From a virus, in the IMG/VR virus record IMGVR_UViG_3300045988_123080: a stretch of 64,000 nucleotides of DNA. One strand, written 5' to 3'. This document shows, one piece after another, positions 6,396 through 42,360 of this stretch. Below the pieces are notes generated by a model. It was not told the origin of the DNA, searched no databases, and was given only the letters and a program-made list of their open reading frames with translations. A program made the translations under genes and the position numbers. Positions within the stretch are counted from its first letter, which is position 1. Every line of letters starts with the position of its first letter.

Positions 6396-6620
6396 ATGAT
6401 GGTATATGGAAACATAACGTGTAATCGCTGTGGCATTACATGGTATGGCCCTAAATGTGGAAAGCTCTATTGTGATAAATGTCGTAAGATAATAAGAAAT
6501 GAGGCATCCATTCGATGCAAGAATAAAAAGAAACATAAACCAACATTTGTTGAGATTGTAAGAATGGCAGATGCAGAGGGATTATCTTACGGAAAATACT
6601 GTTTGAAGTATGGAATTTGA
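6396..6620 (+). CDS. small Cys4 Zn-ribbon protein
   Basis: CNRCG...CGKLYCDKC motifs, 74 aa. Confidence 0.45.
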   Translation: MMVYGNITCNRCGITWYGPKCGKLYCDKCRKIIRNEASIRCKNKKKHKPTFVEIVRMADAEGLSYGKYCLKYGI

Positions 6621-7479
6621 GGTGAATGTAATGAACGCACTTGAGAATGAAAAGAAAAACGAGAATACGGTTGCTTTTGATTTTTCTGAATATGATTCTT
6701 CTAAAGAAGAAAGGCACCAGAAAGTAATCAAAAGGAATTATAACCTGACTCGGATGGAAGCGAATCATGGAACGGTTCAGCCGATTAAGGACAAAGAAGA
6801 TATTAAACGTATTTCAGAATATTTCTGGATTAAACGTCAGTACCGCAACTGGTGTTTGTTTAATGTAGGATGTTGCACAGGATTCAGAGCAAGTGATTTG
6901 CTTCGTTTGAAGGTTTCTGATGTAGCAGCTACAGATATGAATGGAAAGGTTGTGGTGAATTTCAACGCAAAACTTCGTGTTAAGGAAAAGAAAACAAATA
7001 AGTATCGCATTCTTAAAGTTCCGGTCCCGGCACTAAAGTGTATTCAAACTTATATCAATATTGATGGATTGTCTTATGACGATTGGCTCTTCCCGTCTCG
7101 GCAAGGCAGTTGGAAGAACTCCATGAGAACAAACGGTGGAACAAGCGTAAGTAAATCTGATGTGTTCCGTAAGTATGATGCAAATCCAAAAGAAATGGGC
7201 GATCCGCTTGATGTGGATTCTTTTGGTAGAATCATGCGTCAAGTTGGTAAGGAGCTAAATCTTCCTGTCCAGCTTGGTTCTCATAGCTGCCGCAAAACTT
7301 TCGGATATCAGTTTATTGCATCTCGTCCAAATGACATAAAAGCTCTTGCGTGGTTGCAGCATAGTCTAAATCACAGTAGTCAGGCAATTACGCTTCGCTA
7401 TATTGGTCTGGATGAAGAAGTGGATGATGAATACTACTCTGGGATTGATTATGGCGTGGACTGCCATGAAAACTCTTGA
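6610..7479 (+). CDS. tyrosine site-specific recombinase (XerD/integrase family), internal second copy
   Basis: Box I GFRASDL, HxxR (LGSHSCRKTFGY), catalytic LRY near C-terminus; probable start ATG ~6631 after GAGGTG. Confidence 0.7.
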   Translation: MEFEVNVMNALENEKKNENTVAFDFSEYDSSKEERHQKVIKRNYNLTRMEANHGTVQPIKDKEDIKRISEYFWIKRQYRNWCLFNVGCCTGFRASDLLRLKVSDVAATDMNGKVVVNFNAKLRVKEKKTNKYRILKVPVPALKCIQTYINIDGLSYDDWLFPSRQGSWKNSMRTNGGTSVSKSDVFRKYDANPKEMGDPLDVDSFGRIMRQVGKELNLPVQLGSHSCRKTFGYQFIASRPNDIKALAWLQHSLNHSSQAITLRYIGLDEEVDDEYYSGIDYGVDCHENS

Positions 7480-8168
7480 GGTGTGTTATGGCTGATACTT
7501 ATATTAAAATCTGGGATACTTATGAGAGCTACTTTGAGCCCCTTAGTGCTGCTGAGGTGGGGCGTCTAGTACTGGCGATGATGAAATATAAATCGTCTGG
7601 AATGGAGCCTGAACTCAACGGAAATGAGCGGTATGTGTGGCCTGCTGTAAAGAGAGATTTAATTAAAGATGCCGAATACATCGAAGGTAAGCGCATTTAT
7701 GGAAAAGCTGGCGGTGAAAGCAAGCGTAAGCAAAACGAAGCAAACGCAAGCAAGAGCAAGCTAGAAAAAGAAAAAGAGAAAGAAAAAGATAAGATATCGT
7801 CTTCGTCTAGTGATGAAGCGACAACGACGAAATCTATCGAGGATGTCTTTCGAGAGGACATCGGAAAGCTCGGTGTTGCAGGAAAGAAGGCTTTGGCAGA
7901 ATATGTTGAGCGCATGGGCGATGAACTTGTACTTGCTGTGATTGGAAAGTGTTCTGATCTAGGTGGTAGTACATGGGCTTATGTGCGAAAAGCTCTGGAT
8001 GAAGCGGAATCTCTTGGTTGCAAGACTGCCGATGATTATCGCCGGGTGTGTCCGACTGGTTGTGGTCGCAATACAAGAGTGGATAGACAAGCTCCCAGTG
8101 GAAACGATTGGCTAAAAAACGCAACAAAACGTCGTCCGCTGGTTAAAAGAGAGCTGGAAACAGCATGA
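7476..8168 (+). CDS. putative DnaD-like replisome organiser
   Basis: C-terminal STWAYVRKALDEAESLGCKTADDY resembles DnaD C-terminal domain; central KEKEKEK low-complexity linker; likely start ATG 7488. Confidence 0.35.
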   Translation: MRCVMADTYIKIWDTYESYFEPLSAAEVGRLVLAMMKYKSSGMEPELNGNERYVWPAVKRDLIKDAEYIEGKRIYGKAGGESKRKQNEANASKSKLEKEKEKEKDKISSSSSDEATTTKSIEDVFREDIGKLGVAGKKALAEYVERMGDELVLAVIGKCSDLGGSTWAYVRKALDEAESLGCKTADDYRRVCPTGCGRNTRVDRQAPSGNDWLKNATKRRPLVKRELETA

Positions 8169-8905: not shown

Positions 8906-9090
8906 TTAACACAACAAACCCATTGAGGAGAAATGCATGGGCTGTGTTCTTGTATAGAGGTAGGCAAGTTTGTTCGTATCTTTTGCGTAATAGCAATCTT
9001 GGGGACAAGGAACGCATGGTAGAACTGCTGGCACGAAGGTACATGACAGAGCCAGAAAATATTGTTGTCGATATTGAATTTAGAGATTGA
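8902..9090 (+). CDS. hypothetical protein
   Basis: 62-aa ORF overlapping previous stop. Confidence 0.35.
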   Translation: MINTTNPLRRNAWAVFLYRGRQVCSYLLRNSNLGDKERMVELLARRYMTEPENIVVDIEFRD

Positions 9091-10326: not shown

Positions 10327-10359
10327 TGTGATAAAAGTTAAGATTTAGGAGGATGTGTT

Positions 10360-10533
10360 ATGGAAGATAATACGAAGGAATTTGCAAGAGCTATTGATAC
10401 TGTAAATAAATTTTTGGATTGTGGAGCAATTGTTTTTGTCAAAGTAAAAGGAAATGAAAAATTGGTAAGACTTGAACAGATTGATATGTGTGCGCCATTA
10501 TCATGCCGTTTTAAAAATTCTGATAAGAGCTGA
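10360..10533 (+). CDS. hypothetical small protein (first member of AGATTTAGGAGG cassette array)
   Basis: 57-aa ORF below track cutoff; preceded by TAAGATTTAGGAGG motif shared with next four genes. Confidence 0.4.
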   Translation: MEDNTKEFARAIDTVNKFLDCGAIVFVKVKGNEKLVRLEQIDMCAPLSCRFKNSDKS

Positions 10534-10552
10534 GATTTAAGGAGATTGTAGG

Positions 10553-10828
10553 ATGGTTAAATTGAATAAGTGCCCATTTTGTGGGCATGAAGCGGTTTCC
10601 ATTAGTGTGTACGATGTTGACGAAAAGTGGAAAGGTTCGCTCGGATGTGATTTTGAGAAAGACCCGGATTACGGTATGGCATTGTATGCCTTACATCACG
10701 AAGAATGGATGAGCTGCATTCTTCGCTGTGATGACCAAGAAGAAGCACTTGGCGGGTTGTTTTTCAATTCTGCTAAAGAGGCTGAAAAGTATTGGAATGA
10801 AAAGACTGCAATGCTTGACAAAAGCTGA
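10553..10828 (+). CDS. Lar-family restriction alleviation protein (paralog 1)
   Basis: N-terminal KCPFCGHEAV and C-terminal YWNEK match Lar CPFCG...WN signature; GAGATTTAAGGAG upstream. Confidence 0.65.
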   Translation: MVKLNKCPFCGHEAVSISVYDVDEKWKGSLGCDFEKDPDYGMALYALHHEEWMSCILRCDDQEEALGGLFFNSAKEAEKYWNEKTAMLDKS

Positions 10829-10847
10829 GATTTAGGGAGACATAGTT

Positions 10848-11078
10848 ATGAGTGAATATAAATTAAAGCCGTGTCCTTTTTGTGGTGGAGAAGTTACCGT
10901 TGCAGAGGGCAGTTATCGCCAAACACGATGGATGTATGTTACGAGAGGAAACAAAGAAAATAGGTGCAACTGCCATGTTTTCATGGAAAGCAAAACTTAC
11001 TACTTTGATTCCTCTGAAAAAGACAAGGAAAGAATCAAAGCCGACCTTATCGAAGCGTGGAATAAGCGAGTCGAATAA
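10848..11078 (+). CDS. Lar-family restriction alleviation protein (paralog 2)
   Basis: MSEYKLKPCPFCGGEV...EAWNKRVE; GAGATTTAGGGAG upstream. Confidence 0.7.
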   Translation: MSEYKLKPCPFCGGEVTVAEGSYRQTRWMYVTRGNKENRCNCHVFMESKTYYFDSSEKDKERIKADLIEAWNKRVE

Positions 11079-11105
11079 AAACTAAGATTTAAGGAGAGAT
11101 ACATT

Positions 11106-11303
11106 ATGAAAAAATTCGTTGCTCTTTTTGAAGGTTGGAACGATAAGCATGACCATGAGTGTATGTGCTATGTTGTTGATGTAGATGATGACTTTGAAAG
11201 TATTTTGAGTATTGAAGAACAGGCAGAAAAGATGGCTCGAAGCGAATATCCTAATCTGAAAAATTTTGAGACGCTTTACATCAAAGAACTGCTTAACAGA
11301 TAA
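11106..11303 (+). CDS. hypothetical protein (cassette member)
   Basis: 65 aa; TAAGATTTAAGGAG upstream. Confidence 0.4.
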   Translation: MKKFVALFEGWNDKHDHECMCYVVDVDDDFESILSIEEQAEKMARSEYPNLKNFETLYIKELLNR

Positions 11304-11329
11304 GAATTAAGATTTAGGAGGAAATAGTT

Positions 11330-12106
11330 ATGCCGAGAAGGAAAACAGTAGAAGCACTGCAATTAACGCCGAAAGAAATAGCTCGGAAGTCGCCTACTTT
11401 TATGGAGCTTCCTGAGATGGTAAGCCGTGCTGGTGAGCCTACATACTATTATGATGTGGGAGATGCTGTAGAGATTGGTCATCTTAGCGGATGCAAGATT
11501 GATGAAGTCTGCGACGGTGGTTTATATTACGGTGTTTCTTACGATGATGGATATAGGTACGAAACGTGGTTTAACATTCGTAAAGCAGGTGTTGAGAAGA
11601 AATCTCAACTGACAGAGAATGAAGATATTAAGATTTCTTACTCAAACGTGACTATTGAATCTTTACTTCACAGATACTATTTCTTTGGCATCAATTGTAA
11701 TCCGAGCTATCAACGCGGATCTGTGTGGACGGATGATGACCGTAAACTGCTTCTTGAAACAATTTTTATGGGTGGTGAAATTGGTCGATTCGTTTTAAAA
11801 AATATTGATATGGACGAATGGAATAAAAATCAGAATTACCTTTATGAAATCATTGATGGAAAGCAGAGACTTCTGACACTGACTGCATTCTACGAAGATC
11901 GTTTCCGTTACAAAGGATATCTGTATAGTGAACTCTCTAAAAAGGACAAGAGAACTTTTAATGAGACTAATATTGCTATTGCAGATTTACGGAATCTTTC
12001 TAAGAAAGATACGTTGCGTGTGTTCTTGTTGTTGAATCGTGGCGGCAAGGTTGTTACCAACGACGTACTTAATCACGCAAAAGAGTTGCTGGACGAAATG
12101 GAGTGA
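11330..12106 (+). CDS. DUF262 (ParB/GmrSD-like nuclease domain) protein
   Basis: PSYQRGSVW...IDGKQRLLTL matches DUF262 QR...DGQQR signature; TAAGATTTAGGAGG upstream. Confidence 0.6.
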   Translation: MPRRKTVEALQLTPKEIARKSPTFMELPEMVSRAGEPTYYYDVGDAVEIGHLSGCKIDEVCDGGLYYGVSYDDGYRYETWFNIRKAGVEKKSQLTENEDIKISYSNVTIESLLHRYYFFGINCNPSYQRGSVWTDDDRKLLLETIFMGGEIGRFVLKNIDMDEWNKNQNYLYEIIDGKQRLLTLTAFYEDRFRYKGYLYSELSKKDKRTFNETNIAIADLRNLSKKDTLRVFLLLNRGGKVVTNDVLNHAKELLDEME

Positions 12107-12464: not shown

Positions 12465-12656
12465 ATGAATAGCATAAAATATGACGAGAAGGGAAATAGA
12501 CTGAATCGAATGCAAGTTATTCGGAAGATGGATAAGTTTCGAGTTTCAATGCTTCTTGAGCAGATTGTCAAGCATTCTGAGGATTATCCGTTTTCCAGAG
12601 AAGAATGGTTAAAATGGTTAAATGAACCTGCAGGAGATCGTATTGATGAGTTTTGA
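12465..12656 (+). CDS. hypothetical protein
   Basis: 63-aa ORF, GGGGATAGGAG SD. Confidence 0.4.
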   Translation: MNSIKYDEKGNRLNRMQVIRKMDKFRVSMLLEQIVKHSEDYPFSREEWLKWLNEPAGDRIDEF

Positions 12657-12680
12657 TAAAACCAATATTTTTGAAGGGAA

Positions 12681-13307
12681 GTGATTTTTATTAACTCTAA
12701 TTTGTTAATAAATCGTGAGCAAAGTGTTGCCATCGTGTGTATAATGTGCTTGCTGGCAGGGAATCTGGTATCGAAGATCAGCCCGGTAATTCAAAATCAG
12801 AGCAATTCGTACCTTTATAATAGTAGTCCTCCGGCAGTAAGTGTTGTGCAGCAAGAGGAAAAGGAACCAGAAGTCATCGTAAAAACTGTTATCGAGACGC
12901 GTGTGGTAAACTTCAGTCAGGGAAAGCGCGAACTCACTAATGATGAGCGTGCTCTTGCGGAGCAGATCGTTGCTTGTGAAGCAGGTGCTGATAGCCTAGA
13001 AGGTCAGATGGCTGTGGCTCAATGTCTTTATGATTCTGCTGTACTTGATGGTCTAACCATCCAGCAGGTCTTTAAGAAGTATGGTTATAGTTCCTTATAT
13101 AATAGGAAGGTGACGGCAGAGAACGAATTGGCTGTGTCTATGGTGTTTGATTACGGCGCTAAAATTTCAAACAAACCAATTCAATGGTTTGTGACCCCGG
13201 CGGCAGCTTCCGGCAGTTGGCACGAGCACGGAGCAACGTTCGCTGGACAATTTGGCGCACATAGGTTCTATTACAACGCGGAACTGGTTGTGGATGATGC
13301 CGAGTGA
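12681..13307 (+). CDS. putative SleB-like cell wall hydrolase (Hydrolase_2) with N-terminal TM
   Basis: EQIVACEAGADSLEGQMAVAQCLYDS resembles SleB/CwlJ Hydrolase_2 core; hydrophobic N-terminus. Confidence 0.45.
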   Translation: MIFINSNLLINREQSVAIVCIMCLLAGNLVSKISPVIQNQSNSYLYNSSPPAVSVVQQEEKEPEVIVKTVIETRVVNFSQGKRELTNDERALAEQIVACEAGADSLEGQMAVAQCLYDSAVLDGLTIQQVFKKYGYSSLYNRKVTAENELAVSMVFDYGAKISNKPIQWFVTPAAASGSWHEHGATFAGQFGAHRFYYNAELVVDDAE

Positions 13308-13342
13308 ATGGCATCATCTAAAATTTTAAACTTTTACAACAA

Positions 13343-13400
13343 CAAAAAGATGTATAATATATTGACCAAAACAAAAAGATGTGTATAATATATCTTGAAA
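13343..13400 (+). promoter_or_regulatory. tandem imperfect ~27-bp repeats each carrying TGTATAAT -10-like box
   Basis: acaaaaagatgtataatata / acaaaaagatgtgtataatata; TTGACC 15 bp upstream of the second. Confidence 0.4.
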
Positions 13401-13413
13401 GTTGTCTAAATGA

Positions 13414-13758
13414 GTGGAGGGCGGTGTTTTAATGCGTGAGAGAAATGTTCTGAAGGTCATACGAGTTGATGACTTTTTAAAGTACATAAGAAAAAAGAGA
13501 GTGTGGGTTTGTTTTATTTGCAATGGTGTAGATGTTCACATGGTCTGTAACAAAATGAACGATGTTGGAGCAGAGACACATGGGATCGTTAAAGGCATTG
13601 GCTTCTTCGGAAACGAAAGTCATATTGAGCTGCGGCAAGAATGCCACGAAGTAAGGAGGATTGAGCTTAGACCGGGCGATAAAGAGAAAGCGTATGAGAT
13701 GATCTTCGATAACACAAGCGTGTTCGTATCAGAGAACCCCGAGTTGTACGGGCACTAA
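13414..13758 (+). CDS. hypothetical protein (upstream of MazF-like gene)
   Basis: probable ATG 13432 after GGAGGGCGG; 109 aa; no MazE-like motif seen. Confidence 0.4.
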   Translation: MEGGVLMRERNVLKVIRVDDFLKYIRKKRVWVCFICNGVDVHMVCNKMNDVGAETHGIVKGIGFFGNESHIELRQECHEVRRIELRPGDKEKAYEMIFDNTSVFVSENPELYGH

Positions 13759-13776
13759 AAATATTTAAAAAACCTC

Positions 13777-13805
13777 TTGACTTCTGCAAGGGTATCCTGT
13801 ATAAT
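13777..13805 (+). promoter_or_regulatory. consensus sigma70-type promoter TTGACT-17-TATAAT (embeds GTATCCTGTATAATATAG motif)
   Basis: TTGACT 13777-13782, 17-bp spacer, TATAAT 13800-13805; 44 bp upstream of mazF-like start. Confidence 0.65.
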
Positions 13806-13848
13806 ATAGCTATGGAACGGAGCTACACTATTATAGAGGAGAAAGACT

Positions 13849-14268
13849 ATGGATAGTAATATTGACCCAAAGGTCGGAGAGGTTTGGTTGGTTGATCTAT
13901 CCAATGCGACAGGTCACCAGCAGCGCGGTATTCGACCGTTTGTTGTGACGAGCAACAACAAGCGCAACTTCTTCAGTCCCACAATCAAAGGGAATCCGTT
14001 GTCTTCCAGAATATACAAGCGTTCTCCGGTTCATGTCCTGCTCTCAAAGGAAGATTGCGATTTTCTGGATGTTGACAGTATCGTTCTTTGTGAAGAGACC
14101 GATACACTTAACAAAGGACAGTTCATCAAGAAACTTGGTGTCTTATCGGAGCGTCAGATGAATATGATCGCAATGGCAAGATGCAAGGATGAACCGTTCT
14201 TACTCGCAGCATTCCTGAGCGGCGTACAACATACTATGGAATTTCAGAATTTTGCCGCATTTGCTTGA
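13849..14268 (+). CDS. MazF/PemK-family endoribonuclease toxin-like protein
   Basis: GEVWLVDLSNATGHQQRGIRPFVVTSNNKRN...SIVLCEETDTLNK...LGVLSERQMNMIAMA matches PemK/MazF signature. Confidence 0.7.
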   Translation: MDSNIDPKVGEVWLVDLSNATGHQQRGIRPFVVTSNNKRNFFSPTIKGNPLSSRIYKRSPVHVLLSKEDCDFLDVDSIVLCEETDTLNKGQFIKKLGVLSERQMNMIAMARCKDEPFLLAAFLSGVQHTMEFQNFAAFA

Positions 14269-14321
14269 TTTTTTATAAGGGTTAATGGTACACTACATAT
14301 AATAAGAAGGAGTGTGCCACT

Positions 14322-15248
14322 ATGCTTACTGAAGAGAAAATCAACGCTTTTGCCGAAAAGTATTCTGATAGAAGCGGTGAGTTTGTTATATCGACACTTA
14401 ACCATGTTATGGATTACGAGGCCGAGCGTGGGTATGAGTTGTTTGACTTCACAAAAGATGATTTTGTAAAGATGTTTGCCAAATACAATTGGGTGAATTC
14501 AAGTCGGTCGTTCAGAAATGTAAAGTCAATAATTACAGGTTACATCAAAAGTGAGTATCGAGCGAGCATGTATGACTTAGCTGAATTCTCGGAGAGCGAC
14601 GTGAGTTCAGACAATATGTACGAGGACAAGTATTTTGCGTCAGCTGATGAGTTTGTTGATTTCTTGGACAAGTATGAAGAACCATATCAGATTCGTATGA
14701 ACGTGATTGCCGTGCTGTACTGGATTGGTCTTACTTCCGAAGAGGTTTCTAATCTGACAATTAACGATGTTGATTTTGAATCATGTACTGTTCTGAATAA
14801 GACCGGTGTTGACGCGAGATTGATGAATATCATTAAGCAGTGTTATGAAATGAAACAATACGATGCTCCAAATATGGGAGGATACAGAACGTTTTATGTC
14901 ATAAATGGTGATTACATTCTTCGCAAAACAGAGGATAGAACTGGTGCAGACAGTGATTCAAGAATGTCTACAAATACGATTCATAGTTATTTCACGCGCT
15001 TGAATGATATTCTCGAAAGAAGATATCATTCAAAGGCTTTAGACCGAAGACATCTGACCAGAAACGGCGAGTATGTCAAGGTTTATAACTACTGTAAAAC
15101 TCATCCAGAATTTAATCTTGCAGAACTTAGTTTCGGAAATGGTAAAGATCCTCTTGCGGACATTATCGGAAGAAAGTGCAGCAAGGTTGCCTACATTAGT
15201 TTCCGGCAAGGATACAAGGGCTGGATCGAATACTTCCACAAAAATTAA
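14322..15248 (+). CDS. hypothetical protein with degenerate tyrosine-recombinase-like box I region
   Basis: IAVLYWIGLTSEEVSNLTINDVDF resembles recombinase box I but Arg replaced by Thr; no HxxR/Y evident. Confidence 0.3.
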   Translation: MLTEEKINAFAEKYSDRSGEFVISTLNHVMDYEAERGYELFDFTKDDFVKMFAKYNWVNSSRSFRNVKSIITGYIKSEYRASMYDLAEFSESDVSSDNMYEDKYFASADEFVDFLDKYEEPYQIRMNVIAVLYWIGLTSEEVSNLTINDVDFESCTVLNKTGVDARLMNIIKQCYEMKQYDAPNMGGYRTFYVINGDYILRKTEDRTGADSDSRMSTNTIHSYFTRLNDILERRYHSKALDRRHLTRNGEYVKVYNYCKTHPEFNLAELSFGNGKDPLADIIGRKCSKVAYISFRQGYKGWIEYFHKN

Positions 15249-15250
15249 AA

Positions 15251-15280
15251 ACAGGGGGCTTCAGCCCCTTGATTTTAACA
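15251..15280 (+). terminator. rho-independent terminator
   Basis: acaGGGGGCttcaGCCCCttgatttt: GC stem-loop followed by T-rich tract after stop at 15248. Confidence 0.65.
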
Positions 15281-15286
15281 TTGTAA

Positions 15287-15304
15287 CTATATAACACAGG
15301 ATAC
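15287..15304 (+). promoter_or_regulatory. recurrent 18-bp motif CTATATAACACAGGATAC (forward copy 1)
   Basis: one of six near-identical copies; ~25 bp upstream of start of 15328 operon. Confidence 0.45.
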
Positions 15305-15327
15305 AGAAAATAGTATTTGAATGGAGA

Positions 15328-17403
15328 ATGATAACAATGTCTGATTTCAAGAAATTTCGTGCACTGCTGCAGGACCACTTCAATGAGATGGTGAAGGGCG
15401 AAAGCCCTCTGTTTATCACCGATGCAGACGAGGATGAACTGTATAATCTGTATCTCGACAGCTTCCCAGCTGGCACGAATGAGTTGTTCCGTAAGCGGCG
15501 CGAGTATGACTGTTCCTGCTGCCGCCGTTTCGTAAAGAACATCGGTAAGCTGGTTTCCTTTATGGATGGTCAGATGGTTACCGTCTGGGATTTCGATACC
15601 AAGTCCGATGTTTATCAGCCGGTTGTGGATGCGCTGGCTGCCTATGTGAAAACCTGCGCTGTTGTGAACCCGTATTACGTCAGCCGCAATATGATCTCTG
15701 ATAGCAAGTTTGGCACTGAGATGAACTATGAGTATGACGCTGATCATAAGGCGGTTCATACCTGGGATCATTTCGTTGTCGAGATTCCTCAGCGGTTCAT
15801 TGTGCGTCCCGATGACGTACCTACCAAGATGGCTCAGTGGCGTGATTCCGCCAATGTGTTCAAGCGCTCTCTGGAGGAGCTAACCATGGATGCCGTGGAC
15901 ACCGTGCTTGAGCTGATTGCGCAGAACAGCCTGTATCGCGGTAAGGAGTTTGAATCTCTGGTTCGTGGCTTCAAAATCGATAAGCAAGTGTATGATCGTC
16001 TGCCTGATGAAAAGAAGTCCGCTTATGTTTGGATGGCTCCCGGCGGAGCTTCGATGAACCGGCTTCGCATCCGCAATACGGCAATCGGTACTCTGCTGGT
16101 GAACCTGAGCGAGGGCATGGACGTGGATGCTGCTGTGTCTGCGTTTGAGGCCATTGTTGCTCCCGCCAACTATAAGCGTCCTAAGGCGATTTTTACCAAG
16201 AAGATGCTGGAAGACGCACAGAAAACCGTCACTGAGTTGGGCTATATGAACAGTCTGGGTCGCCGGTTTGCTACTCTGGACGACATCACCGTAAATAACG
16301 TTTTATTCTGTAACCGAGACGCAGCCCCTCGTATTACTGGCGCTGTGAATCCGTTTGAAGCAATGGCGAAGACTGTCGCAATCGATCCTAAGAAGTTCGG
16401 CCGCGCAGAGGAAATCGGTATTGATAAGTTTATCAAGGACGTGCTGCCCACCGCGACTGGTCTGGAACTGTTTATGGAGAATCGGTTTGAGAAGAATATG
16501 ACGTCTCTGATTGCTCCGCAGGATAAGAACGCGCCGTCTATGTTCAAGTGGGCGAATGGTTTCAGTTGGGCGTATACGGGTAACGTGGCTGACAGCCAGA
16601 TCCGTGAGAACGTCAAGAATGCAGGCGGTAAGGTTGATGGCGTGTTGCGTTTCTCTATTCAGTGGAACGATAAGCAGTGCGAGTGGGATGGAAATGACCT
16701 TGATGCCCACTGTGTTGAACCGAACGACTTTGAGATCTATTTTGGCAACAAACGAGATTGGAGTACTGGTGGCAATCTGGATGTAGATATTATTCATCCT
16801 GATCGCGATGAGGCCGCTGTTGAGAATATTACATGGCCTGACATCAAAAAGATGAAGGATGGTAAATACGAGTTCTTTGTTCATTGCTTCTCTAACCGTG
16901 GCGGCAAAACCGGCTTCCGCGCAGAGATTGAATTTGATGGTCAAATCTACTCCTTCAATTACAATATTCCGCTGCGTCAGACTCAGAATGTTTCTGTTGC
17001 TACTGTTGTGTTGAATGATGGGCAGTTTACTATTAAGGAACATCTCAATAGTTCTACTTCTTCCCGTGAAATCTGGGGTGTGAATTCCAATCAGTTTGTA
17101 CCGGTGTCCGTAGCAATGTATTCTCCGAACTACTGGGACGAGCAGAGTGGTAACGGTAATCGTCATTACTTCTTCATGCTCAAGGATTGTGTAAACCCTG
17201 AAAAGCCCAATGGATTCTACAATGAATTCCTGAAGGCGGAACTGCTACAGCATAAGCGAGTATTCGAGGCTCTTGGTTCTCAGATGGCAGTTCAGTCGGT
17301 AGATGACCAGCTGTCCGGCGTTGGGTTCTCTGAGACGAAACATGATTCCTTTGTTGTCAAGGTTCAGGGCGCTACTGAGCGGGTTCTGAAAGTTGTTATT
17401 TAA
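15328..17403 (+). CDS. large hypothetical protein (691 aa) co-operonic with Pnkp
   Basis: no motif recognised; first gene after recurrent motif and terminator; followed by coiled-coil protein and Pnkp. Confidence 0.5.
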   Translation: MITMSDFKKFRALLQDHFNEMVKGESPLFITDADEDELYNLYLDSFPAGTNELFRKRREYDCSCCRRFVKNIGKLVSFMDGQMVTVWDFDTKSDVYQPVVDALAAYVKTCAVVNPYYVSRNMISDSKFGTEMNYEYDADHKAVHTWDHFVVEIPQRFIVRPDDVPTKMAQWRDSANVFKRSLEELTMDAVDTVLELIAQNSLYRGKEFESLVRGFKIDKQVYDRLPDEKKSAYVWMAPGGASMNRLRIRNTAIGTLLVNLSEGMDVDAAVSAFEAIVAPANYKRPKAIFTKKMLEDAQKTVTELGYMNSLGRRFATLDDITVNNVLFCNRDAAPRITGAVNPFEAMAKTVAIDPKKFGRAEEIGIDKFIKDVLPTATGLELFMENRFEKNMTSLIAPQDKNAPSMFKWANGFSWAYTGNVADSQIRENVKNAGGKVDGVLRFSIQWNDKQCEWDGNDLDAHCVEPNDFEIYFGNKRDWSTGGNLDVDIIHPDRDEAAVENITWPDIKKMKDGKYEFFVHCFSNRGGKTGFRAEIEFDGQIYSFNYNIPLRQTQNVSVATVVLNDGQFTIKEHLNSSTSSREIWGVNSNQFVPVSVAMYSPNYWDEQSGNGNRHYFFMLKDCVNPEKPNGFYNEFLKAELLQHKRVFEALGSQMAVQSVDDQLSGVGFSETKHDSFVVKVQGATERVLKVVI

Positions 17404-17417
17404 GAGGAGAAATTATT

Positions 17418-17801
17418 ATGGAAAAGAATCTGTTTGAAATTGCAACCCGTAATCGCTATCGCTTCAACTATAAGGGTATTATGACTGTTGAAGATCTGTG
17501 GGATCTGAGTGTCGAGGCACTAGATGCGATTTTTAAGACCCTGAATCGTCAGAAGAAGACCGCAGACGAAGACTCCTTGCTGGCTGTTAAGAGTGCCGAA
17601 AATACCGAACTGGCAAACAAGATTGAGCTGGTCAAGTATATCGTGTCTGTCAAGCTGGCTGAATCTGAGGCTCGTGTGGATGCAGCCGAGAAGAAGGCGC
17701 AGCGCGATAAGATTATGAAGATTGTGGCAAAGAAGAAGGACAAGGAGCTGGAAGATATGGACGTAGACCAGCTGATGAAGAAGCTGGAAGAGTTGAACTA
17801 A
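17418..17801 (+). CDS. hypothetical coiled-coil protein
   Basis: 127 aa, Lys/Glu-rich heptad-like; GAGGAGA SD. Confidence 0.45.
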   Translation: MEKNLFEIATRNRYRFNYKGIMTVEDLWDLSVEALDAIFKTLNRQKKTADEDSLLAVKSAENTELANKIELVKYIVSVKLAESEARVDAAEKKAQRDKIMKIVAKKKDKELEDMDVDQLMKKLEELN

Positions 17802-17870: not shown

Positions 17871-20081
17871 ATGAGAACTTTGCTTCTTTTCCGTGGAGCA
17901 CCCGGATGCGGGAAGTCCACCTATATTAAAGAGCATGATCTGGAAAAGTATACGCTTAGTGCCGATACGATTCGCCTTATGTGTCAGGGTGGTCAGGAAA
18001 CCCCGGCTGGCACAATGGAGATCTCTCTCCAGAACGATGGTGTTGTCTGGGATATGCTCTTTAAACTGTTGGAGGTTCGGATGTCTCACGGTGAATTTAC
18101 CGTGATTGATGCAACGAACTCTAAAACTGTCGAAATCAATCGCTATAAGAATCTTGCCAAGCAGTACAGGTACAGAATGTACATCATCGACATGACTGAT
18201 TTGCCGATTAGCGAGTGTAAACGGCGTAATGCGCTTCGCACTCCTCTGAAGAGAGTCCCGGATGCTGCCATTGATAAAATGTATGCACGATTCGCAACGC
18301 AGAAGATTCCGTCTGGTGTGACTGTACTCTCGTCAGATGTAAATGTCCTTGAGAAATTGAACTATGTTCCGCAGGACTTTAACAACTGGAGCAAAATTCA
18401 TATCATCGGTGATGTGCATGGGTGTTACAGTTGCTTGAAAGAGTATCTTGGCGACCTGAAGGATGATGAACTGTATATTTTTGTTGGCGATTATCTGGAT
18501 CGTGGAATTGAAAATGTAGAGATGTTCAAGTTCCTTTGTGATGTTGTAGACAATAATCGGAAGAATGTGATTTTCCTTGAAGGAAATCATGAACATTGGC
18601 TAAACAAGTGGGGGCACGATGAGCCTGTTCAGAGCGAGGAGTTCGCAAACTACACTCGTCCGCAGCTTTTCAAAGCAGGGATTGACCATAATACGGCTCG
18701 TAAGGTTTATTCGAGAGTAGGACAGTGCTCCTATTTTGATTACGACGGGAAAAGATACTTCGTTAGCCATGGTGGTTTGAGTTATTTGCCTGAATTTCTA
18801 CCATTCGTGTCTACTGACCAGATGATTAAAGGTGTAGGTCGCTATCCTGATATGCTAACCGTGGCTGAGTCTTGGGAAAAATCGATGCCGGATAGCTACA
18901 TTCAGATCTTCGGTCATCGAAATGTGCAGGATGTTCCTATTGATATGGGGCATCGGTGCTACAACCTCGAAGGAAAAATCGAGTTTGGTGGATATCTCCG
19001 TTGCGTGGAACTTGAACATGGTCAGTCAATCAAATGTGTAGAAACAAAGAATGATGTGTTCCGAAAAGAGGAGCCAAAGACTGAAACTGCCGTTGAAATG
19101 AAAACTGAGTTCGATAACGCAGAACTTGTCAGTAAGATGCGTCAAAGCAAATATGTGTTTGAGAAGCGATTCGGAGATATTTCTTCTTTCAACTTTTCTC
19201 GTGAAGCATTTTATAAGAAGCATTGGGATGAGGTTTCTACCAAAGCAAGGGGATTGTTCATTAACACAAAGACGAATAAGATTGTAGCTCGAAGCTATGA
19301 TAAGTTCTTTGCGGTCGATGAGCGGAATGAAACGAGAATTGGAAACCTACAGAACACTTTGAAGTTCCCGGTGACTGCATATCTGAAGGAAAACGGATTT
19401 CTTGGCATTGTCTCGTATGATGCAGAAAAGGATGGTATGTTCATTGCAAGTAAATCCACTCCTGAAGGGCCTTTTGCAGATATGTTCCGAAAGATTCTCA
19501 TGGATACGACCTCTGATGAAGACCGTAAGAATCTGAAGGAAGTTGCAAAAGAGAATGGCTCCATCATTTTTGAAGTGATTGATCCTGTGAATGATGCTCA
19601 TATCATCGAATATAAGAAACCGCACATTGTTTTGCTGGATATTGTTGCGAATGATATGAACTTTAGTGTGATGGATTACGATGATCTGAAGCGTGTTGCT
19701 GAAAAGTGTCATTTGCAGATTAAGGAGAAGGTTAAGACTTTTGAGAACTGGAGTGAATTCTATTCTTGGTACGAGGAAGTCATGAACGAGAACTATCTGC
19801 ATCATGGCTTTGAACACGTTGAAGGCTTTGTTTTGCGAGACAGCAACAATTTCATGTTTAAGATGAAGCTTCCTTATTATAAGCACTGGAAGTTCTTGCG
19901 TGGTGTTATGCAGAGCGTTCAGAAGCGTGGCTATTATGAAAATACTGCAAAGTTGTTTACTGCTGAAGATAATTTATTCTATGGTTGGATGCGTGAACAA
20001 CGAGAGAAAGACAAAGAGTCTTTCTGCAAGAAGGGTATTATTCAGTTACGGAACGAATTCTATGAGAATCAGCACGAATAA
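17871..20081 (+). CDS. pnkp: polynucleotide kinase-phosphatase-ligase (Pnkp-like RNA repair enzyme)
   Basis: Walker A GAPGCGKST kinase; calcineurin-type phosphoesterase GDVHGC / GDYLDRG / GNHEHW; C-terminal nucleotidyltransferase-like KENGFLG; same order as Clostridium thermocellum Pnkp. Confidence 0.75.
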   Translation: MRTLLLFRGAPGCGKSTYIKEHDLEKYTLSADTIRLMCQGGQETPAGTMEISLQNDGVVWDMLFKLLEVRMSHGEFTVIDATNSKTVEINRYKNLAKQYRYRMYIIDMTDLPISECKRRNALRTPLKRVPDAAIDKMYARFATQKIPSGVTVLSSDVNVLEKLNYVPQDFNNWSKIHIIGDVHGCYSCLKEYLGDLKDDELYIFVGDYLDRGIENVEMFKFLCDVVDNNRKNVIFLEGNHEHWLNKWGHDEPVQSEEFANYTRPQLFKAGIDHNTARKVYSRVGQCSYFDYDGKRYFVSHGGLSYLPEFLPFVSTDQMIKGVGRYPDMLTVAESWEKSMPDSYIQIFGHRNVQDVPIDMGHRCYNLEGKIEFGGYLRCVELEHGQSIKCVETKNDVFRKEEPKTETAVEMKTEFDNAELVSKMRQSKYVFEKRFGDISSFNFSREAFYKKHWDEVSTKARGLFINTKTNKIVARSYDKFFAVDERNETRIGNLQNTLKFPVTAYLKENGFLGIVSYDAEKDGMFIASKSTPEGPFADMFRKILMDTTSDEDRKNLKEVAKENGSIIFEVIDPVNDAHIIEYKKPHIVLLDIVANDMNFSVMDYDDLKRVAEKCHLQIKEKVKTFENWSEFYSWYEEVMNENYLHHGFEHVEGFVLRDSNNFMFKMKLPYYKHWKFLRGVMQSVQKRGYYENTAKLFTAEDNLFYGWMREQREKDKESFCKKGIIQLRNEFYENQHE

Positions 20082-21795: not shown

Positions 21796-21813
21796 CTATG
21801 TAACACAGGATAC
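21796..21813 (+). promoter_or_regulatory. recurrent 18-bp motif CTATGTAACACAGGATAC (forward copy 2)
   Basis: 18 bp upstream of GTG start of C5-MTase gene. Confidence 0.45.
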
Positions 21814-21830: not shown

Positions 21831-23295
21831 GTGAAACATTATGGAAGTATTTGCGAGATTGATGGTTCTAAGATTGAACCTGTCTCGTGTATCACTGGTG
21901 GTTCACCTTGTTAGCCAAGATCTTTCTATTGCCGGTAAGCGGGCAGGTTTGGCTGGAGAACGGTCTGGTCTATTTATGGAAATGATTCGTGTGATAAAAG
22001 AAATGAGGGATACCACCAATGGAGAATATCCAAAATTTGCAATCTGGGAAAATGTTAGAGGAGCACTCTCCTCAAACAACGGAGAAGACTTCCGATGTGT
22101 CTTGGAAGAATTTGCACACATCGTCGAAGCAGACGCTACAATTCCTAAACCTTCGGAAAAAGGTGGAAAATGGTCTAAATCCGGCGCAATTTCCGGTAAT
22201 GGATGGTCTTTGGCATGGAGACTCTTCGATGCTCAATACTGGGGAGTGCCCCAACGTCGTCAAAGAATCGCGCTTGTCATGGATTTTGGAGGACAACGTG
22301 CCGCAAAGATATTATTTGAGCGCACGGGCGTGCCAGGGAATTCTGACGAGAGCATCCCGACGTGGCAAGGTGCTGCCAGAATTGCTGAAAAATGCATTGT
22401 TGGAAATGATCGAGTGGTGGGAGAAAAAAGCTTTTGTATCGTCGGAAACATGATTGACAGAGAAACCAACATGAATGGGACTGGTGTAAAAGAAGATACT
22501 GCTTTCACTATAAACACTATTGACCGTAATGCTGTTGCCTACACTTTAAAGATTCGTTCAGGATGCGAAGGTGGTGGCAAAGGCGCACTGGTACAAATCG
22601 AGAAGAGCGCAACGCTTTCTACATTGCAAGATCAAACGTTAATTTGCTTGGCAGACAACACCTCTTTACATAATTCAAAACAAAAGATTTCGCCGGTGGT
22701 GTTTGAGAGTCACAGTCAGGATGCTCGATACACTCAACAGGGCGACACAAGTCCGGCTTGTACGGCTCAATGGGGGACTGGTGGCAATAATATGCCGCTT
22801 GTTGCTGAAAAGAAAACCTTTGCAATGCAACGCATTGGTGAATACAAGGAAAGTGAACAAGCTAGTACGATGAAATCTCGTGACTACAAGGATGCTACTG
22901 ACTTGATTGCAGAGAAGGAAACGAAGAATCTGCAATGGATTGTTCGTCGCCTGACTCCTGTCGAGTGTGAACGACTTCAAGGGTTCCCTGATGGATGGAC
23001 TGATATTGGCGAGTGGGTTGATGAGAATGGTAAAAAGCACAAACCAGCTGATTCTCCTCAGTACAAGGCACTCGGTAATTCAATCGCTTTGCCTCAGTGG
23101 TATTGGATTTTCCAGAAAATGAAGCCGTATATCGGTGAAAATCCTACGCTTGGCAGTCTTTTCGATGGGATTGGTGGCTTTCCGCTTGTCTTTGAAAGTA
23201 CGTATGGTGATGGTACTGCTATCTGGGGATCTGAAATCGAACCGTTCTGCGTTGCAGTAACTAAGAAGCATTTTCCAGAAAAGCAAGGAGGATAA
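21831..23295 (+). pseudogene. C5 cytosine DNA methyltransferase, circularly permuted motif order, frame broken at catalytic PCQ motif
   Basis: GTG 21831 after AAGGAGG gives ...ICEIDGSKIEPVSCITGGSPC then TAG; +1 frame continues QDLSIAGKRAGL..ERSGLF (IV-V), ENV (VI), QRR (VIII), RLTPVECERLQGFPDGW and GNS (IX-X), then FDGIGGF...SEIEPF (I-II) at the C-terminus. Confidence 0.7.
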
Positions 23296-26085: not shown

Positions 26086-26103
26086 CTAAGTAATACAGGA
26101 TAC
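26086..26103 (+). promoter_or_regulatory. recurrent 18-bp motif CTAAGTAATACAGGATAC (forward copy 3)
   Basis: 15 bp upstream of ATG 26119. Confidence 0.45.
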
Positions 26104-38775: not shown

Positions 38776-41106
38776 GTGGCAGATAAAAAATTCAATGAAA
38801 ATATGATCCGTTGCTACATCAGGATAAAACGAGTCTTTTATCCGAAAGATGGGAAGGAGGTGGAGCCCGGCGGCTTTGCCACTTTCTCTGCCGAGGTGGT
38901 AAAAGTCAAGCAGGGGAACCCCATTATGAGCCGATACAGTGACCTCCGACTGAAAGGCAACGTCCCTAGCCTTGATATGGATAAGACTTATTCGGTCTGT
39001 GGTGAGTATGTTCACCATGAAAAGTTTGGGGACCAGTATAAAATCGTCTATATGAACGAGTTCCAAGAGATTACTGACCCAGAAGAACAGAAAAGCTTTC
39101 TCCATTTTATCTTGACAGAACATCAGTTTGAGATGCTTTACGAAGCATTTGATAATCCGTATGAAATCATCAAGAACGGTGATATCAAGTCTCTTTGCAC
39201 TGTTAGTGGCATCACAGAAGGTCGAGCACAGAAAATTATCGATGCCTTTGAAAATAACATTGATAACAGCGAAGCATACACGAAGCTGATTGAGTATGGC
39301 TTGACTCCCAGTGCTATCGGAAAACTTGTTCATCAATATCACGGTGCAGACACTCTTGTAAGAAAGATTGAAGAGAACCCTTATGTTTTGATTGACGATG
39401 TATATGGTATTGGTTGGAAGAAAGCTGACGCTCTTGCATTGAATATGGGATTAAAGCCAAACTCTCAATTCCGAATTGAAGCTTACGTTATGCATTTTCT
39501 TGCCGACCGTGCCGAAGAAGGCAATTCTATCATCCCGGCAAACCAGACAATCAATAGTTGCATTAAGGAACTTGGCTTGGATGAGGGTGACCAAGAGATT
39601 ATCAAGAGAGCACTTTTCCATCTGCACGATGTCCGCGAAACGCTTTGGTGGAGTGATGATCGTCAGGAATTTGCTTTAACAAGAGTGTGGAATCTGGAAA
39701 ATGAGATTGCAAAGGAAATCAAGCGTCTGGCGGACGCACCTATCGAGCCGATTGGCCGAAACATGGATACTGCAATCGACGAGGCAGAGCGTGCTCTTGG
39801 TATTGAGTACACCGAGGAGCAGAGAGATGCTATTAAAAAGGTATGTTCAAACAACATTGCTATTGTCACAGGTCTAGGTGGATGCGGTAAAAGTACCGTT
39901 GTCGCTGGTGTCCTAAAGGTTCTTCGTGGTAAGTCGTTTGCCCAGACTGCACTCTCTGGTCGTGCTGCTGCTCGTATGCAGGAGATTACTGGTCAGGACG
40001 GCAAGACAATTCACCGCCTCCTTGGTTACGACATTGAAAATGGTGGCTTCGTTCATGATAAAAACAATCCTTTGGAGGAAGATATTATCATTTTGGATGA
40101 GACATCTATGGTTGGGGCCAAACTGTTCTACGACTTGATTCAAGCGATTGAAACTGGCAAGCGATTTATTATGATTGGTGATGACGGCCAGCTTGAGAGC
40201 ATTGGCATGTGCAATATTTTCAAGGATATGCTTGCCTCCAAGGTTGTTCCGGTTGCTCGCTTGACTAAGATTCACCGTCAGGCTGCTAAGTCAGCGATTA
40301 TCACTGAGAGTATCAAGGTTCGTAATGCCACGCAGTTGGTTCCTTACGGTTGGGCTGGTAATGAGATTCGTGGCGAGCTGCGTGATTTGGAGCTTGATAT
40401 CTATAAGGATGCAGGCGAGTCATTTAGCCACATCATCAATCAGTATCGTACCTTATATAATAAGGTAGGGAACGATAGTGCAAAGATTCAGATTGTACTT
40501 CCACAGAAGCTGCGTGGTAGTATCTGTACTTATGAAGTCAATAATGCTATTCAGGAAATTGTGAATCCGAGTCGTGGTCAAGCAGAAGCAAAGGTCACAA
40601 TCTATGGTGATGGCAAGGATAGGGTGTATACTCTGCGTGAGGGTGATCAGGTCATCATCAACAAGAACAACTATGAGCTTCACACATACAATCTCAAGAC
40701 AAAGAAAAAAGAAGAGAAGTGTCCGGTGTTTAACGGAAACCGTGGCATTATCCGAAAGATTGAGAGTAGCTTTATCCTGGTTGATTTTGACCAGTGGGGA
40801 ACAATCTTCATCCCTCACTACTTTGGTGGCAATAACATCTGGGCAACGCTTGAGCTCGCTTACGCTCTGAGTTGTCATAAGCTGCAGGGCAGTGAAGCTC
40901 CGTATGTGATTGTTGGCATGGACAACTCTGCGTACCTGATGCTGACGAGAGAATGGCTCTATACGGCCATCACTCGTGCCAAGAAGTATTGTGTGATTTG
41001 CGCCGAAACTCATGCTCTTGATCGGGCTGTAAAGACTTCGAGAGTTCCATATAAGCGGACGTTCTTGAAGGAATTTTTACGGAAAGAATTTGCAGAAAAG
41101 CATTGA
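38776..41106 (+). CDS. RecD-like SF1 DNA helicase
   Basis: Walker A GLGGCGKST, Walker B IILDETSM, motif V/VI LSCHKLQGSEAPYVIV; 776 aa. Confidence 0.6.
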   Translation: MADKKFNENMIRCYIRIKRVFYPKDGKEVEPGGFATFSAEVVKVKQGNPIMSRYSDLRLKGNVPSLDMDKTYSVCGEYVHHEKFGDQYKIVYMNEFQEITDPEEQKSFLHFILTEHQFEMLYEAFDNPYEIIKNGDIKSLCTVSGITEGRAQKIIDAFENNIDNSEAYTKLIEYGLTPSAIGKLVHQYHGADTLVRKIEENPYVLIDDVYGIGWKKADALALNMGLKPNSQFRIEAYVMHFLADRAEEGNSIIPANQTINSCIKELGLDEGDQEIIKRALFHLHDVRETLWWSDDRQEFALTRVWNLENEIAKEIKRLADAPIEPIGRNMDTAIDEAERALGIEYTEEQRDAIKKVCSNNIAIVTGLGGCGKSTVVAGVLKVLRGKSFAQTALSGRAAARMQEITGQDGKTIHRLLGYDIENGGFVHDKNNPLEEDIIILDETSMVGAKLFYDLIQAIETGKRFIMIGDDGQLESIGMCNIFKDMLASKVVPVARLTKIHRQAAKSAIITESIKVRNATQLVPYGWAGNEIRGELRDLELDIYKDAGESFSHIINQYRTLYNKVGNDSAKIQIVLPQKLRGSICTYEVNNAIQEIVNPSRGQAEAKVTIYGDGKDRVYTLREGDQVIINKNNYELHTYNLKTKKKEEKCPVFNGNRGIIRKIESSFILVDFDQWGTIFIPHYFGGNNIWATLELAYALSCHKLQGSEAPYVIVGMDNSAYLMLTREWLYTAITRAKKYCVICAETHALDRAVKTSRVPYKRTFLKEFLRKEFAEKH

Positions 41107-41131
41107 CAATTATGTGCGTATCCTGTATAAT
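41103..41131 (+). promoter_or_regulatory. consensus sigma70-type promoter TTGACA-17-TATAAT (embeds reverse copy of 18-bp motif) reading into tnpB
   Basis: TTGACA 41103-41108 overlapping helicase stop, 17-bp spacer, TATAAT 41126-41131. Confidence 0.65.
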
Positions 41132-41178
41132 ATAGTTATAAAAAGTCTCCATCCCGGAGGCTTAAAATTCTCTTTTAA

Positions 41179-41196
41179 CTATATAATACAGGATAC
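41179..41196 (+). promoter_or_regulatory. recurrent 18-bp motif CTATATAATACAGGATAC (forward copy 4) abutting tnpB start
   Basis: inverted with the copy at 41118-41135 around a 43-bp spacer carrying a short hairpin. Confidence 0.45.
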
Positions 41197-42360
41197 GTGG
41201 TGAGGAAATTGTTAAAGAGCTTCAAGACGGAAATCAATCCGACAGTCGAGCAAAAAATTAAGATTAACAAGACTATTGGCACTTGTAGATACATTTACAA
41301 CTTCTATATCGGTCACAACAGAGCTTTATACGATAAAGGCGAAAAGTTTATGACTGGCAGGAGTTTTAGCGTATGGCTCAATAATGAGTACATTCCTAAT
41401 AATCCTGAAAAAATATGGATTAAAGAAGTAAGTTCCAAGTCCGTAAAGAAGTCTATCGAGGATGCAAATACTGCTTTTACAAGATTTTTTAAACATCAGA
41501 GTGGATTTCCTAAATTCAAAAAGAAAGGTAAATCTGATGTAAAAATGTATTTCGTAAGGAACAATCCTAATGATTGTAGGTGTGAGAGACATAGGTTGAA
41601 CATACCAACTTTAGGTTGGGTACGCATTAAAGAAAAAGGCTATATACCAACAACTAAAGACGGATGGAAAATCAAAAGCGGTACAGTATCCATCAAAGCA
41701 GGCAAATATTATGTGTCAGTTCTTGTAGAAATTCCCAATACTAAGATTGCTAATAATAGCAATGACGGTATAGGAATTGACCTGGGTTTGAAAAAACTGG
41801 CGATTGTTTCTAATGGTATAACTTATAAAAATATCAATAAGTCAACAAGGGTTAAAAAATTGGAAAAGAAATTGCGCAGAGAACAAAGATGTCTCTCACG
41901 CAAGTATGAGAATTTAAAGAAAGGAGAGTCCACTCAAAAGAATATACAAAAGCAAAAGCTCAAAGTACAAAGACTTCATCATAAAATAGACAATATCCGT
42001 ACTGACTATATCAATAAATCAATAGCAGAGATAGTGAAAACCAAGCCATTTTATATAACTATTGAAGATTTGAATGTATCAGGAATGATGAAGAACAGGC
42101 ATCTATCAAAATCCATTGCATCACAAAAGTTCTATGAATTTAGAACCAAGATTAAAGCTAAGTGTGATGAAAATGGTATTGAATTAAGAGTAGTAGACAG
42201 ATGGTATCCATCATCCAAAATGTGTCACTGTTGTGGTGCTATCAAGAAAGATTTAAAGCTTTCAGATAGAATATACCGTTGTGATTGTGGCTATGTCGAG
42301 GATAGGGATTTTAATGCTGCTCTTAATCTAAGAGATGCTTTAACTTACGAAGTTGCATGA
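41197..42360 (+). CDS. tnpB: TnpB (OrfB) RNA-guided nuclease-like transposon protein
   Basis: N-terminal LKSFKTEINPTVEQ..NKTIGTCRYIYN; RuvC-I GIDLGLKKLA, RuvC-II ITIEDLNVSGM, Zn finger CHCCG..CDCG, RuvC-III DRDFNAALN. Confidence 0.8.
   Translation: MVRKLLKSFKTEINPTVEQKIKINKTIGTCRYIYNFYIGHNRALYDKGEKFMTGRSFSVWLNNEYIPNNPEKIWIKEVSSKSVKKSIEDANTAFTRFFKHQSGFPKFKKKGKSDVKMYFVRNNPNDCRCERHRLNIPTLGWVRIKEKGYIPTTKDGWKIKSGTVSIKAGKYYVSVLVEIPNTKIANNSNDGIGIDLGLKKLAIVSNGITYKNINKSTRVKKLEKKLRREQRCLSRKYENLKKGESTQKNIQKQKLKVQRLHHKIDNIRTDYINKSIAEIVKTKPFYITIEDLNVSGMMKNRHLSKSIASQKFYEFRTKIKAKCDENGIELRVVDRWYPSSKMCHCCGAIKKDLKLSDRIYRCDCGYVEDRDFNAALNLRDALTYEVA

Follow-up and report, generated by a model that had tools for sequence, protein, structure and literature searches.

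Work on the Bacillus phages phi3T and SPbeta has made host MazF a central effector of the lysis-lysogeny decision. In phi3T, the RNase activity of this host protein is needed for efficient lysogeny and is inhibited by AimX and YosL (PMC10769878). In Bacillus phages, MazF is freed by SroA, which binds MazE, and it has been reported to spare the mRNA of the sro operon. This operon (yopM-yopR, encoding SroA-SroF) ends in the gene of an integrase-fold repressor that lacks the catalytic arginine Arg I, the last operon gene before the terminator. The related repressor MrpR also lacks this box-I arginine, has no recombinase activity, and binds the element SPBRE at ten promoters (PMC10516654). SroF was described as a monomer that reads a 26-bp asymmetric box with many genomic sites (bioRxiv 10.1101/2025.11.27.690993). 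SPbeta-like phages further encode small co-evolving antirepressors (Sar/YopT) near sroF. Among the Bacillota, the MazF proteins of B. subtilis, Listeria, and S. aureus cut U^ACAUA (bioRxiv 10.64898/2026.08.06.743204). Here, we describe a locus (positions 13326-15280) in a 64,000-nt stretch of the IMG/VR record IMGVR_UViG_3300045988_123080, which is referred to as the window. The locus encodes a MazF of its own next to a distant homologue of these repressors. We tentatively propose, giving it slightly less than an even chance, that it serves an SPbeta-like temperate gut phage as its repressor (immunity) operon, with a phage MazF built into the lysis-lysogeny switch.

The locus comprises three co-oriented genes with good ribosome-binding sites (RBS): orfU (13432-13758, + strand, 108 amino acids [aa]), a MazF/PemK-family endoribonuclease gene, here called mazF (13849-14268, + strand, 139 aa), and a gene encoding a 308-aa protein (14322-15248, + strand). 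The mazF product matched the Pfam family PemK_toxin (PF02452) with an E value of 2.8e-19 and 69.8 bits (cutoff, 23.1) as well as phrog_1936, "MazF-like growth inhibitor" (3e-21). In the original prediction, made from the letters of the DNA, the PemK/MazF signature was said to run along the whole length of the protein. The fold match stands but covers residues 8 to 109 (profile positions 1 to 103 of 109), and the last ~30 residues constitute a C-terminal extension with an invariant DEPFL that is specific to this MazF clade and kept throughout it. The nearest solved relatives were S. aureus and B. subtilis MazF (1.5e-14 to 1e-10), with 35 to 38% identity. A comparison of the catalytic residues with known MazF proteins had been recommended, and gap-free PDB alignments showed that they are retained: R29 corresponds to the catalytic Arg25 and S52 to Thr48 of B. 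subtilis MazF. Among nine members of the clade (59 to 73% identity), R29 was invariant and position 52 was Ser or Thr. The T48A exchange abolishes the function of B. subtilis MazF, and this catalytic mutant fails to complement (PMC10769878). The ratio of nonsynonymous to synonymous substitutions (dN/dS) of mazF was 0.033 over 61 distinct intact alleles, lower than that of orfU (0.136) or of the 308-aa gene (0.086); such very strong purifying selection means that the fold is not decaying or inactivated. Judged from its sequence, the phage MazF is thus a catalytically competent, strongly conserved endoribonuclease, with RNA cleavage itself being predicted.

The 308-aa protein had been described as carrying a degenerate recombinase-like segment. 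This was borne out by the box-I catalytic Arg I, which is replaced in the window (GLT for GLR), the four lineages having T, T, S, and G, but the description missed the identity of the protein as a repressor. Single-sequence searches remained below threshold (MrpR_N_CB, 4e-4; phrog_5830, "integrase"). When a profile that included diverged relatives was compared with the PDB, the YopR/MrpR structures 8BJ6, 8A0A, and 8BJV ranked first (4e-5 to 7e-5, residues 12 to 283), and hhalign aligned the protein with SPbeta YopR over 251 columns with a probability of 85% and an E value of 6e-6. Homologues of the protein bear precomputed PF22823 (MrpR_C_cat) and PF22822 matches, and Foldseek ranked Phi3T SroF (9rd5, 9rgl), MrpR (8a0a), and YopR above XerA and Cre. 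By these sequence profiles, the 308-aa protein is a distant homologue of the MrpR/YopR/SroF integrase-fold master repressors, having a tyrosine-recombinase fold with a lost catalytic residue. This identity means that the toxin gene lies in the operon with which an SPbeta-like temperate phage controls lysogeny.

The genome setting agrees with this assignment. Approximately 135 close relatives were present in IMG/VR on contigs of roughly 125 to 141 kb, and homologues were also found on contigs of up to 784 kb, which indicates integrated prophages. The downstream genes follow the SPbeta order (YorF, AAA_24/YorG, a helicase-sized open reading frame [ORF], primase, RecJ, and PolIII-alpha), with RecD2 also being collinear. 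With this yorF-yorL-type replication module and a genome of ~135 kb, the phage is SPbeta-like. The order orfU, promoter, mazF, repressor gene, and terminator was kept in lineages in which MazF shares 61 to 94%, the repressor 25 to 47%, and OrfU 23 to 58% identity with the window proteins. The MazF clade was not found among GTDB species genomes. Hints of the host came from the phage polymerase only, homologues of which occur in Roseburia, Acetatifactor, and uncultured Lachnospiraceae genomes; the host probably belongs to the gut Clostridia (Lachnospiraceae).

As had been predicted, mazF possesses its own promoter, TTGACT-17-TATAAT (13777-13805, + strand), and a strong terminator closes the operon (15253-15269, + strand; dG -17.2 kcal/mol, T-rich tail). 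This promoter and that of orfU, TTGACC-16-TATAAT (13362-13389, + strand), are the sole 11/12 promoter matches between positions 9000 and 19000 and the best ones there. As a class, promoter-like matches in this region were not above chance (25 compared to 23.6 expected), and the case for the mazF promoter therefore rests on its conservation. A TTGAC(A/T)-17-TAnnnT promoter occupies the same 90- to 107-nt orfU-mazF spacer in five diverged lineages (L161, L164, L165, L175, and L176). In relatives, conservation reached at least 95% in the -35 and -10 boxes and in the motif half of the spacer, as opposed to the first 9 spacer bases, which varied freely. No terminator was found in either the orfU/mazF or the mazF/repressor gene gap. 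The mazF and repressor genes appear to be co-transcribed, the message probably ending at the terminator behind the repressor gene, which is the last gene of the operon, as in SPbeta. A scan of positions 12500 to 16000 for known RNA families gave no match. In L165 (6570-6660), the sequence 3′ of the repressor terminator resembles a tRNA gene by appearance.

The repeats that had been noted in front of the upstream ORF were found as two direct repeats, ACAAAAAGATGT(GT)ATAATATAT (13342-13393, + strand), the second of which holds the -10 box of the orfU promoter. They contain TGTATAAT at 13351 and 13382 and are local only, with two copies. This region was near-identical in L175, though the OrfU protein of that lineage is only 36% identical. 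In L164 (4474-4531), the orfU promoter (TTGACT-17-TATAAT) is flanked by an 18-bp inverted repeat with 94% complementarity and a distance of 22 nt, so that orfU of this lineage may have a dimeric regulator of its own.

The 18-nt motif CTATATAATACAGGATAC was found in six copies in the window, compared to 0.02 expected. The phage motif that had been predicted in the spacer of the mazF promoter is one of them: located on the - strand at 13792-13809 and reading GTATCCTGTATAATATAG on the + strand, it extends over the -10 box and the 3′ portion of the spacer. A second promoter, TTGACA-17-TATAAT from 41103, likewise contains a reverse-orientation copy (41118-41135). The four direct copies lie on the + strand just after the operon terminator, heading the next transcription unit (15287-15304), upstream of a cytosine methylase gene (21796-21813; gene at 21841-23295), between the YorF-like and YorG-like (AAA_24) genes (26086-26103), and 43 nt past the second reverse copy, abutting a TnpB gene (41179-41196). 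The copies thus form two classes, with the 2 reverse ones within near-consensus or consensus sigma-A promoters and the 4 direct ones lying where transcription units begin, shortly before a ribosome-binding site. The copy at 15287-15304 was found at the same place in relatives without the insertion at 15328-17801. Diverged lineages with repressors of 25 to 31% identity lack the window motif and carry repeated motifs of their own at the same slots. In L165, this is a 25-nt repeat, placed at the mazF promoter, immediately behind the repressor terminator, and ahead of yorF; in L161, ATATAAACAAATG-type copies are found at the promoters of both orfU and mazF and behind the repressor gene. We extracted SPBRE from SPbeta, where it fills the spacer and -10 box of TAGACA-17-TATAAT promoters or abuts the RBS; its sites include that at yopM, with which the repressor operon begins. 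The copy number, positions, and lineage-specific variation of the window motif suit a multicopy asymmetric operator that would also act on the promoter of its own operon. Because the motif fits the SPBRE pattern, operator function is the best inference, and the motif is most likely the operator of the MrpR-like repressor and an analogue of SPBRE. Candidate operator sequences for the 308-aa protein (a putative 18- to 24-bp motif) are GTATCCTGTATAATATAGCTA and the copy at 15281-15304. An origin of the motif as an IS605/TnpB end was ruled out, as it stands at conserved operon heads with and without neighboring insertions. The TnpB (OrfB_IS605/Cas12f-like TNB) gene in the region 41103-42360 begins where the direct copy ends, and the two copies in front of it make up an inverted repeat of 18 bp with a 43-nt gap.

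The locus shares several traits with the SPbeta/phi3T sro operon. In both, the repressor gene without Arg I is followed by the terminator, a multicopy asymmetric motif lies over promoter spacers and -10 boxes (including those of the operon's own promoter), a yorF-yorL replication block is present, and the lysogeny operon is tied to MazF activity. Unlike in SPbeta/phi3T, the nuclease is phage encoded and stands in the place of the upstream sro genes, and no arbitrium genes (among the ORFs scanned) and no SroA-E, YosL, or Sar homologues were detected. Moreover, the window repressor is only ~18% identical to YopR, and the host is probably a member of the Lachnospiraceae rather than Bacillus. In the literature, we found no paper on a phage-encoded MazF coupled to MrpR/SroF. 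Since MazF is encoded here in the equivalent operon, the simplest interpretation would be that its role lies in the same decision as in phi3T.

The chromosomal MazEF (EndoA/EndoAI) of Bacillota shares the PemK/MazF domain and the catalytic Arg25/Thr48 equivalents (R29 and S52). In contrast to the chromosomal system, with its MazE (ribbon-helix-helix [RHH]/AbrB) gene, the phage locus has no MazE, and no MazE/PemI/AbrB-type antitoxin families were found among the neighboring ORFs within ~5 kb of mazF. The upstream partner instead has an unrelated, beta-rich predicted fold and a separate promoter, the nuclease carries the extra conserved C-terminal tail of ~30 aa, and mazF is apparently co-transcribed with a phage repressor gene. 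The locus is thus not a type II MazEF module, in which MazE/PemI is encoded upstream in one autoregulated operon, since OrfU is unlike MazE and mazF is self-promoted. The PHROG 1936 genes of Enterocloster phage PMBT24, Psychrobacillus phage Perkons, and NatCom Lachnospiraceae phages are also phage-borne mazF genes without a recognizable mazE, and their products share 28.9 to 39.6% identity with the window MazF among the listed matches. However, they are situated in structural, early, or replication modules, with neighbors that are neither orfU-like nor MrpR-like.

The upstream gene, orfU, had been predicted to show no MazE/PemI/AbrB-like sequence, and this was confirmed. OrfU had no match in Pfam, PHROGs, NCBIfam, or PADLOC, the PDB sequence search yielded nothing significant, and no similarity was found to SPbeta-phage proteins known to bind MazF, MazE, or SroF. 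Nevertheless real as a gene, orfU has 48 intact alleles, which are under purifying selection. It is an ORFan, as a profile search of 1.84 billion representatives returned seven proteins. Structure prediction yielded a beta-rich, YojF/PH-like fold that is not MazE-like; a MazE, AbrB, RHH, or helix-turn-helix (HTH) fold was not found. All orfU homologues found, including two recovered by the orfU profile alone, have a mazF of this clade 90 to 107 nt downstream. The description of the toxin as orphan or solitary was therefore too strong, since orfU family members, without exception, immediately precede a mazF of this clade and occur nowhere else. Co-evolution of OrfU with the repressor was hinted at between lineages, but the two assorted nearly independently within the clade (r of 0.15). 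Because of this near-independent assortment and the co-occurrence with MazF, we treat OrfU as a MazF-linked protein and propose that it is a non-MazE modulator or inhibitor of MazF, a candidate noncanonical antitoxin.

The spacer between mazF and the repressor gene contains a UACAUA hexamer (14294-14299, + strand) 22 nt before the repressor start codon, a candidate site of processing by MazF. In six of six lineages, the spacer holds one TACATA, 20 to 34 nt before this start codon; at the genome-wide hexamer frequency, ~0.03 to 0.05 would be expected per spacer. An unbiased comparison of four mutually diverged spacers showed that TACATA is the sole hexamer, and two of its subwords are the sole pentamers, common to all of them. 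The site was unchanged in 10 of 10 spacer alleles. TACATA was absent from the mazF and repressor coding sequences of every lineage, as well as from 61 and 69 alleles, respectively, and it was present in the orfU coding sequence of five of the six lineages. Across the genome, UACAUA occurs 37 times on the coding strand compared to 13.8 expected (Markov-2), yet it ranks only 4th of 60 hexamers of the same composition; 13 sites lie on the other strand. Translation-initiation regions contained 5 sites (1.6 expected), which is marginal against same-composition controls, and the same count in the SPbeta sro operon (3 compared to 4.8 expected) was uninformative. UACAUA was seen within 30 nt upstream of start codons at 6129, 24950, 26101, 26439, and 14294, lying between the Shine-Dalgarno sequence (SD) and the AUG at 6129 and 26439 and just before the SD at 24950 (YorF-like) and 26101. 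In lineages of the window type, the spacer segment 14283-14316, which with 97% mean column identity is better conserved than any other part of the locus, is predicted to fold with GGTACAC pairing with GTGTGCC, so that UACAUA and most of the repressor SD would lie in the loop and the last SD bases in the stem. This fold was not conserved in L161, L164, and L165.

Taking these features together, we suggest the following course of events for a MazF-containing lysis-lysogeny switch. The sigma-A-type promoter of mazF would drive a bicistronic mazF-repressor message, and the repressor, by binding the motif over its own promoter, would negatively autoregulate the operon. MazF made together with the repressor early after infection may cut phage and host mRNAs and thereby tip the decision toward lysogeny, by analogy to phi3T and SPbeta. 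At the single UACAUA of the spacer, MazF could sever its own cistron from that of the repressor, so that the toxin would be limited and the repressor spared. OrfU, with its own promoter and its strict co-occurrence with the MazF clade, would act as a non-MazE modulator or inhibitor of the nuclease. A fuller version of this scheme appears doubtful to us. According to it, SPbeta-like gut phages internalized the MazF arm of an arbitrium-type circuit: a UACAUA-specific MazF, co-expressed with the repressor, would degrade lytic and orfU transcripts while sparing its own coding regions, a single self-limiting cut in the spacer would allow repressor synthesis to continue, and OrfU would be an inhibitor of a new fold that sets the switch.

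A number of observations weigh against the proposed switch. The AlphaFold model of the 308-aa protein was poor (predicted local distance difference test score [pLDDT] of 60, below 50 in the C-terminal half, confident at residues 1 to 176 only), and its Foldseek template modeling (TM) scores were low. The direct-orientation motif copies lack good -35 boxes, so a role of the motif as a promoter for a phage-specific factor, instead of an operator, persists as a rival. Cleavage of UACAUA by the phage MazF is assumed, the protein being only 35 to 38% identical to MazF of known specificity, and TACATA could be conserved for a different reason, as part of a weak internal -10 box. Its absence from the coding regions is weak evidence, as 4 of 60 same-composition hexamers were likewise missing from both. 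No depletion of the UACAU pentamer was seen in the operon (4 sites in that of the window), and nothing survived multiple testing in an unbiased scan of four operons for avoided 4- to 6-mers. OrfU is charge neutral, has the fold of no known inhibitor, and evolves at a far higher rate than MazF does. Finally, no arbitrium AimR/AimP families were found among the ORFs scanned upstream, a scan that did not include every small ORF of the window.

The main alternative is a prophage toxin-antitoxin, addiction, or abortive-infection module, in which OrfU would be a new antitoxin that keeps MazF neutralized in lysogens. MazF would then be released when the prophage is lost or another phage attacks, so that the 135-kb prophage is stabilized or competitors are excluded, and the site beside the repressor gene would only ensure expression in lysogens. 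Prophage toxin-antitoxin modules that act in defense are well known. OrfU is encoded upstream of the toxin, is smaller and faster evolving, and is strictly associated with it. Strong sigma-A-type promoters precede both genes, and if MazF is produced in lysogens, as its co-transcription with the repressor would imply, it has to be restrained there. However, OrfU has none of the antitoxin folds mentioned above and no acidic tail (pI 7.0), and the toxin, 90 nt downstream, is self-promoted in every lineage, unlike in autoregulated type II operons. Further, a 94%-identical MazF is paired with a 36%-identical OrfU in L175, no PADLOC model matched the locus, and the promoter bears a phage-wide motif rather than a module-specific palindrome. 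We regard this alternative as possible but somewhat unlikely.

Two further explanations were considered. OrfU could be part of the repressor circuit, as an antirepressor or Cro-like factor, with MazF as a conserved passenger between two immunity genes. The identities of OrfU and the repressor drop in parallel across five lineages (36/41, 58/47, 23/28, 28/31, and 26/25%) while MazF stays at 61 to 94%, and antirepressors of the Sar/YopT type are found near sroF in SPbeta-like phages; even so, given the nearly independent assortment within the clade, we think this explanation improbable. A lytic-phase RNase for host shutoff or anti-defense, which would degrade host mRNA or titrate a host MazE-like antitoxin, has equally little likelihood in our view. 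Solitary mazF-like genes do occur in the replication or structural modules of many phages, and a gene for a polynucleotide kinase (PNK)/phosphatase/RNA ligase enzyme follows the operon in most relatives, but mazF is tied to the lysogeny repressor by a common promoter and terminator in every lineage, and MazF activity opposes lytic growth in the one system studied. Of the functions offered in the original prediction, a three-gene module came closest, whereas specific support for host shutoff or anti-defense was lacking, PADLOC included.

If the locus is indeed a MazF-containing lysogeny switch, a widespread family of human gut prophages, with a nuclease inside the repressor operon and one conserved canonical site between the cistrons, would constitute a compact test system for the role of MazF in lysogeny. 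The locus extends the MrpR/SroF repressor family, and putatively its operator logic, from Bacillus to gut Clostridia, and orfU represents a new protein family that is genetically tied to MazF without being MazE-like.

Further features were observed around the operon. Directly after the motif copy at 15287-15304, a two-gene cassette (15328-17801) encodes a 691-aa protein (phrog_1735, no Pfam match) and a 127-aa ORF; it was present in 22 of 80 close relatives, and in the others an RNA-repair gene directly follows the repressor terminator. At 17871-20081, this gene encodes a 736-aa RNA end-healing and -sealing enzyme in which a polynucleotide kinase (AAA_33) is fused to a metallophosphatase and to an RNA ligase of the T4 Rnl1 type. 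In most relatives, as in the diverged L161, its transcription unit comes right after the MazF-repressor operon, and MazF-type cuts leave ends of the kind repaired by such enzymes. Upstream of the locus, a 258-aa protein (11330-12106) has a GmrSD_N/ParB-like domain, with NsnA as the top PADLOC match (2.7e-18). A junction of ~25 nt, TGATAAAAGYTRAGATTTAGGAGGA, comprising a stop codon and an RBS, is repeated between small genes at 764-787, 10329-10353, 10521-10545, 10816-10840, 11073-11097, and 11299-11322. A pair of genes at 6610-8168, ~6 kb ahead of the repressor operon, encodes a true tyrosine integrase (PF00589, 2e-15) and, after it, a DUF6291 protein; this pair is kept in the relatives L166 to L169 and in L165.

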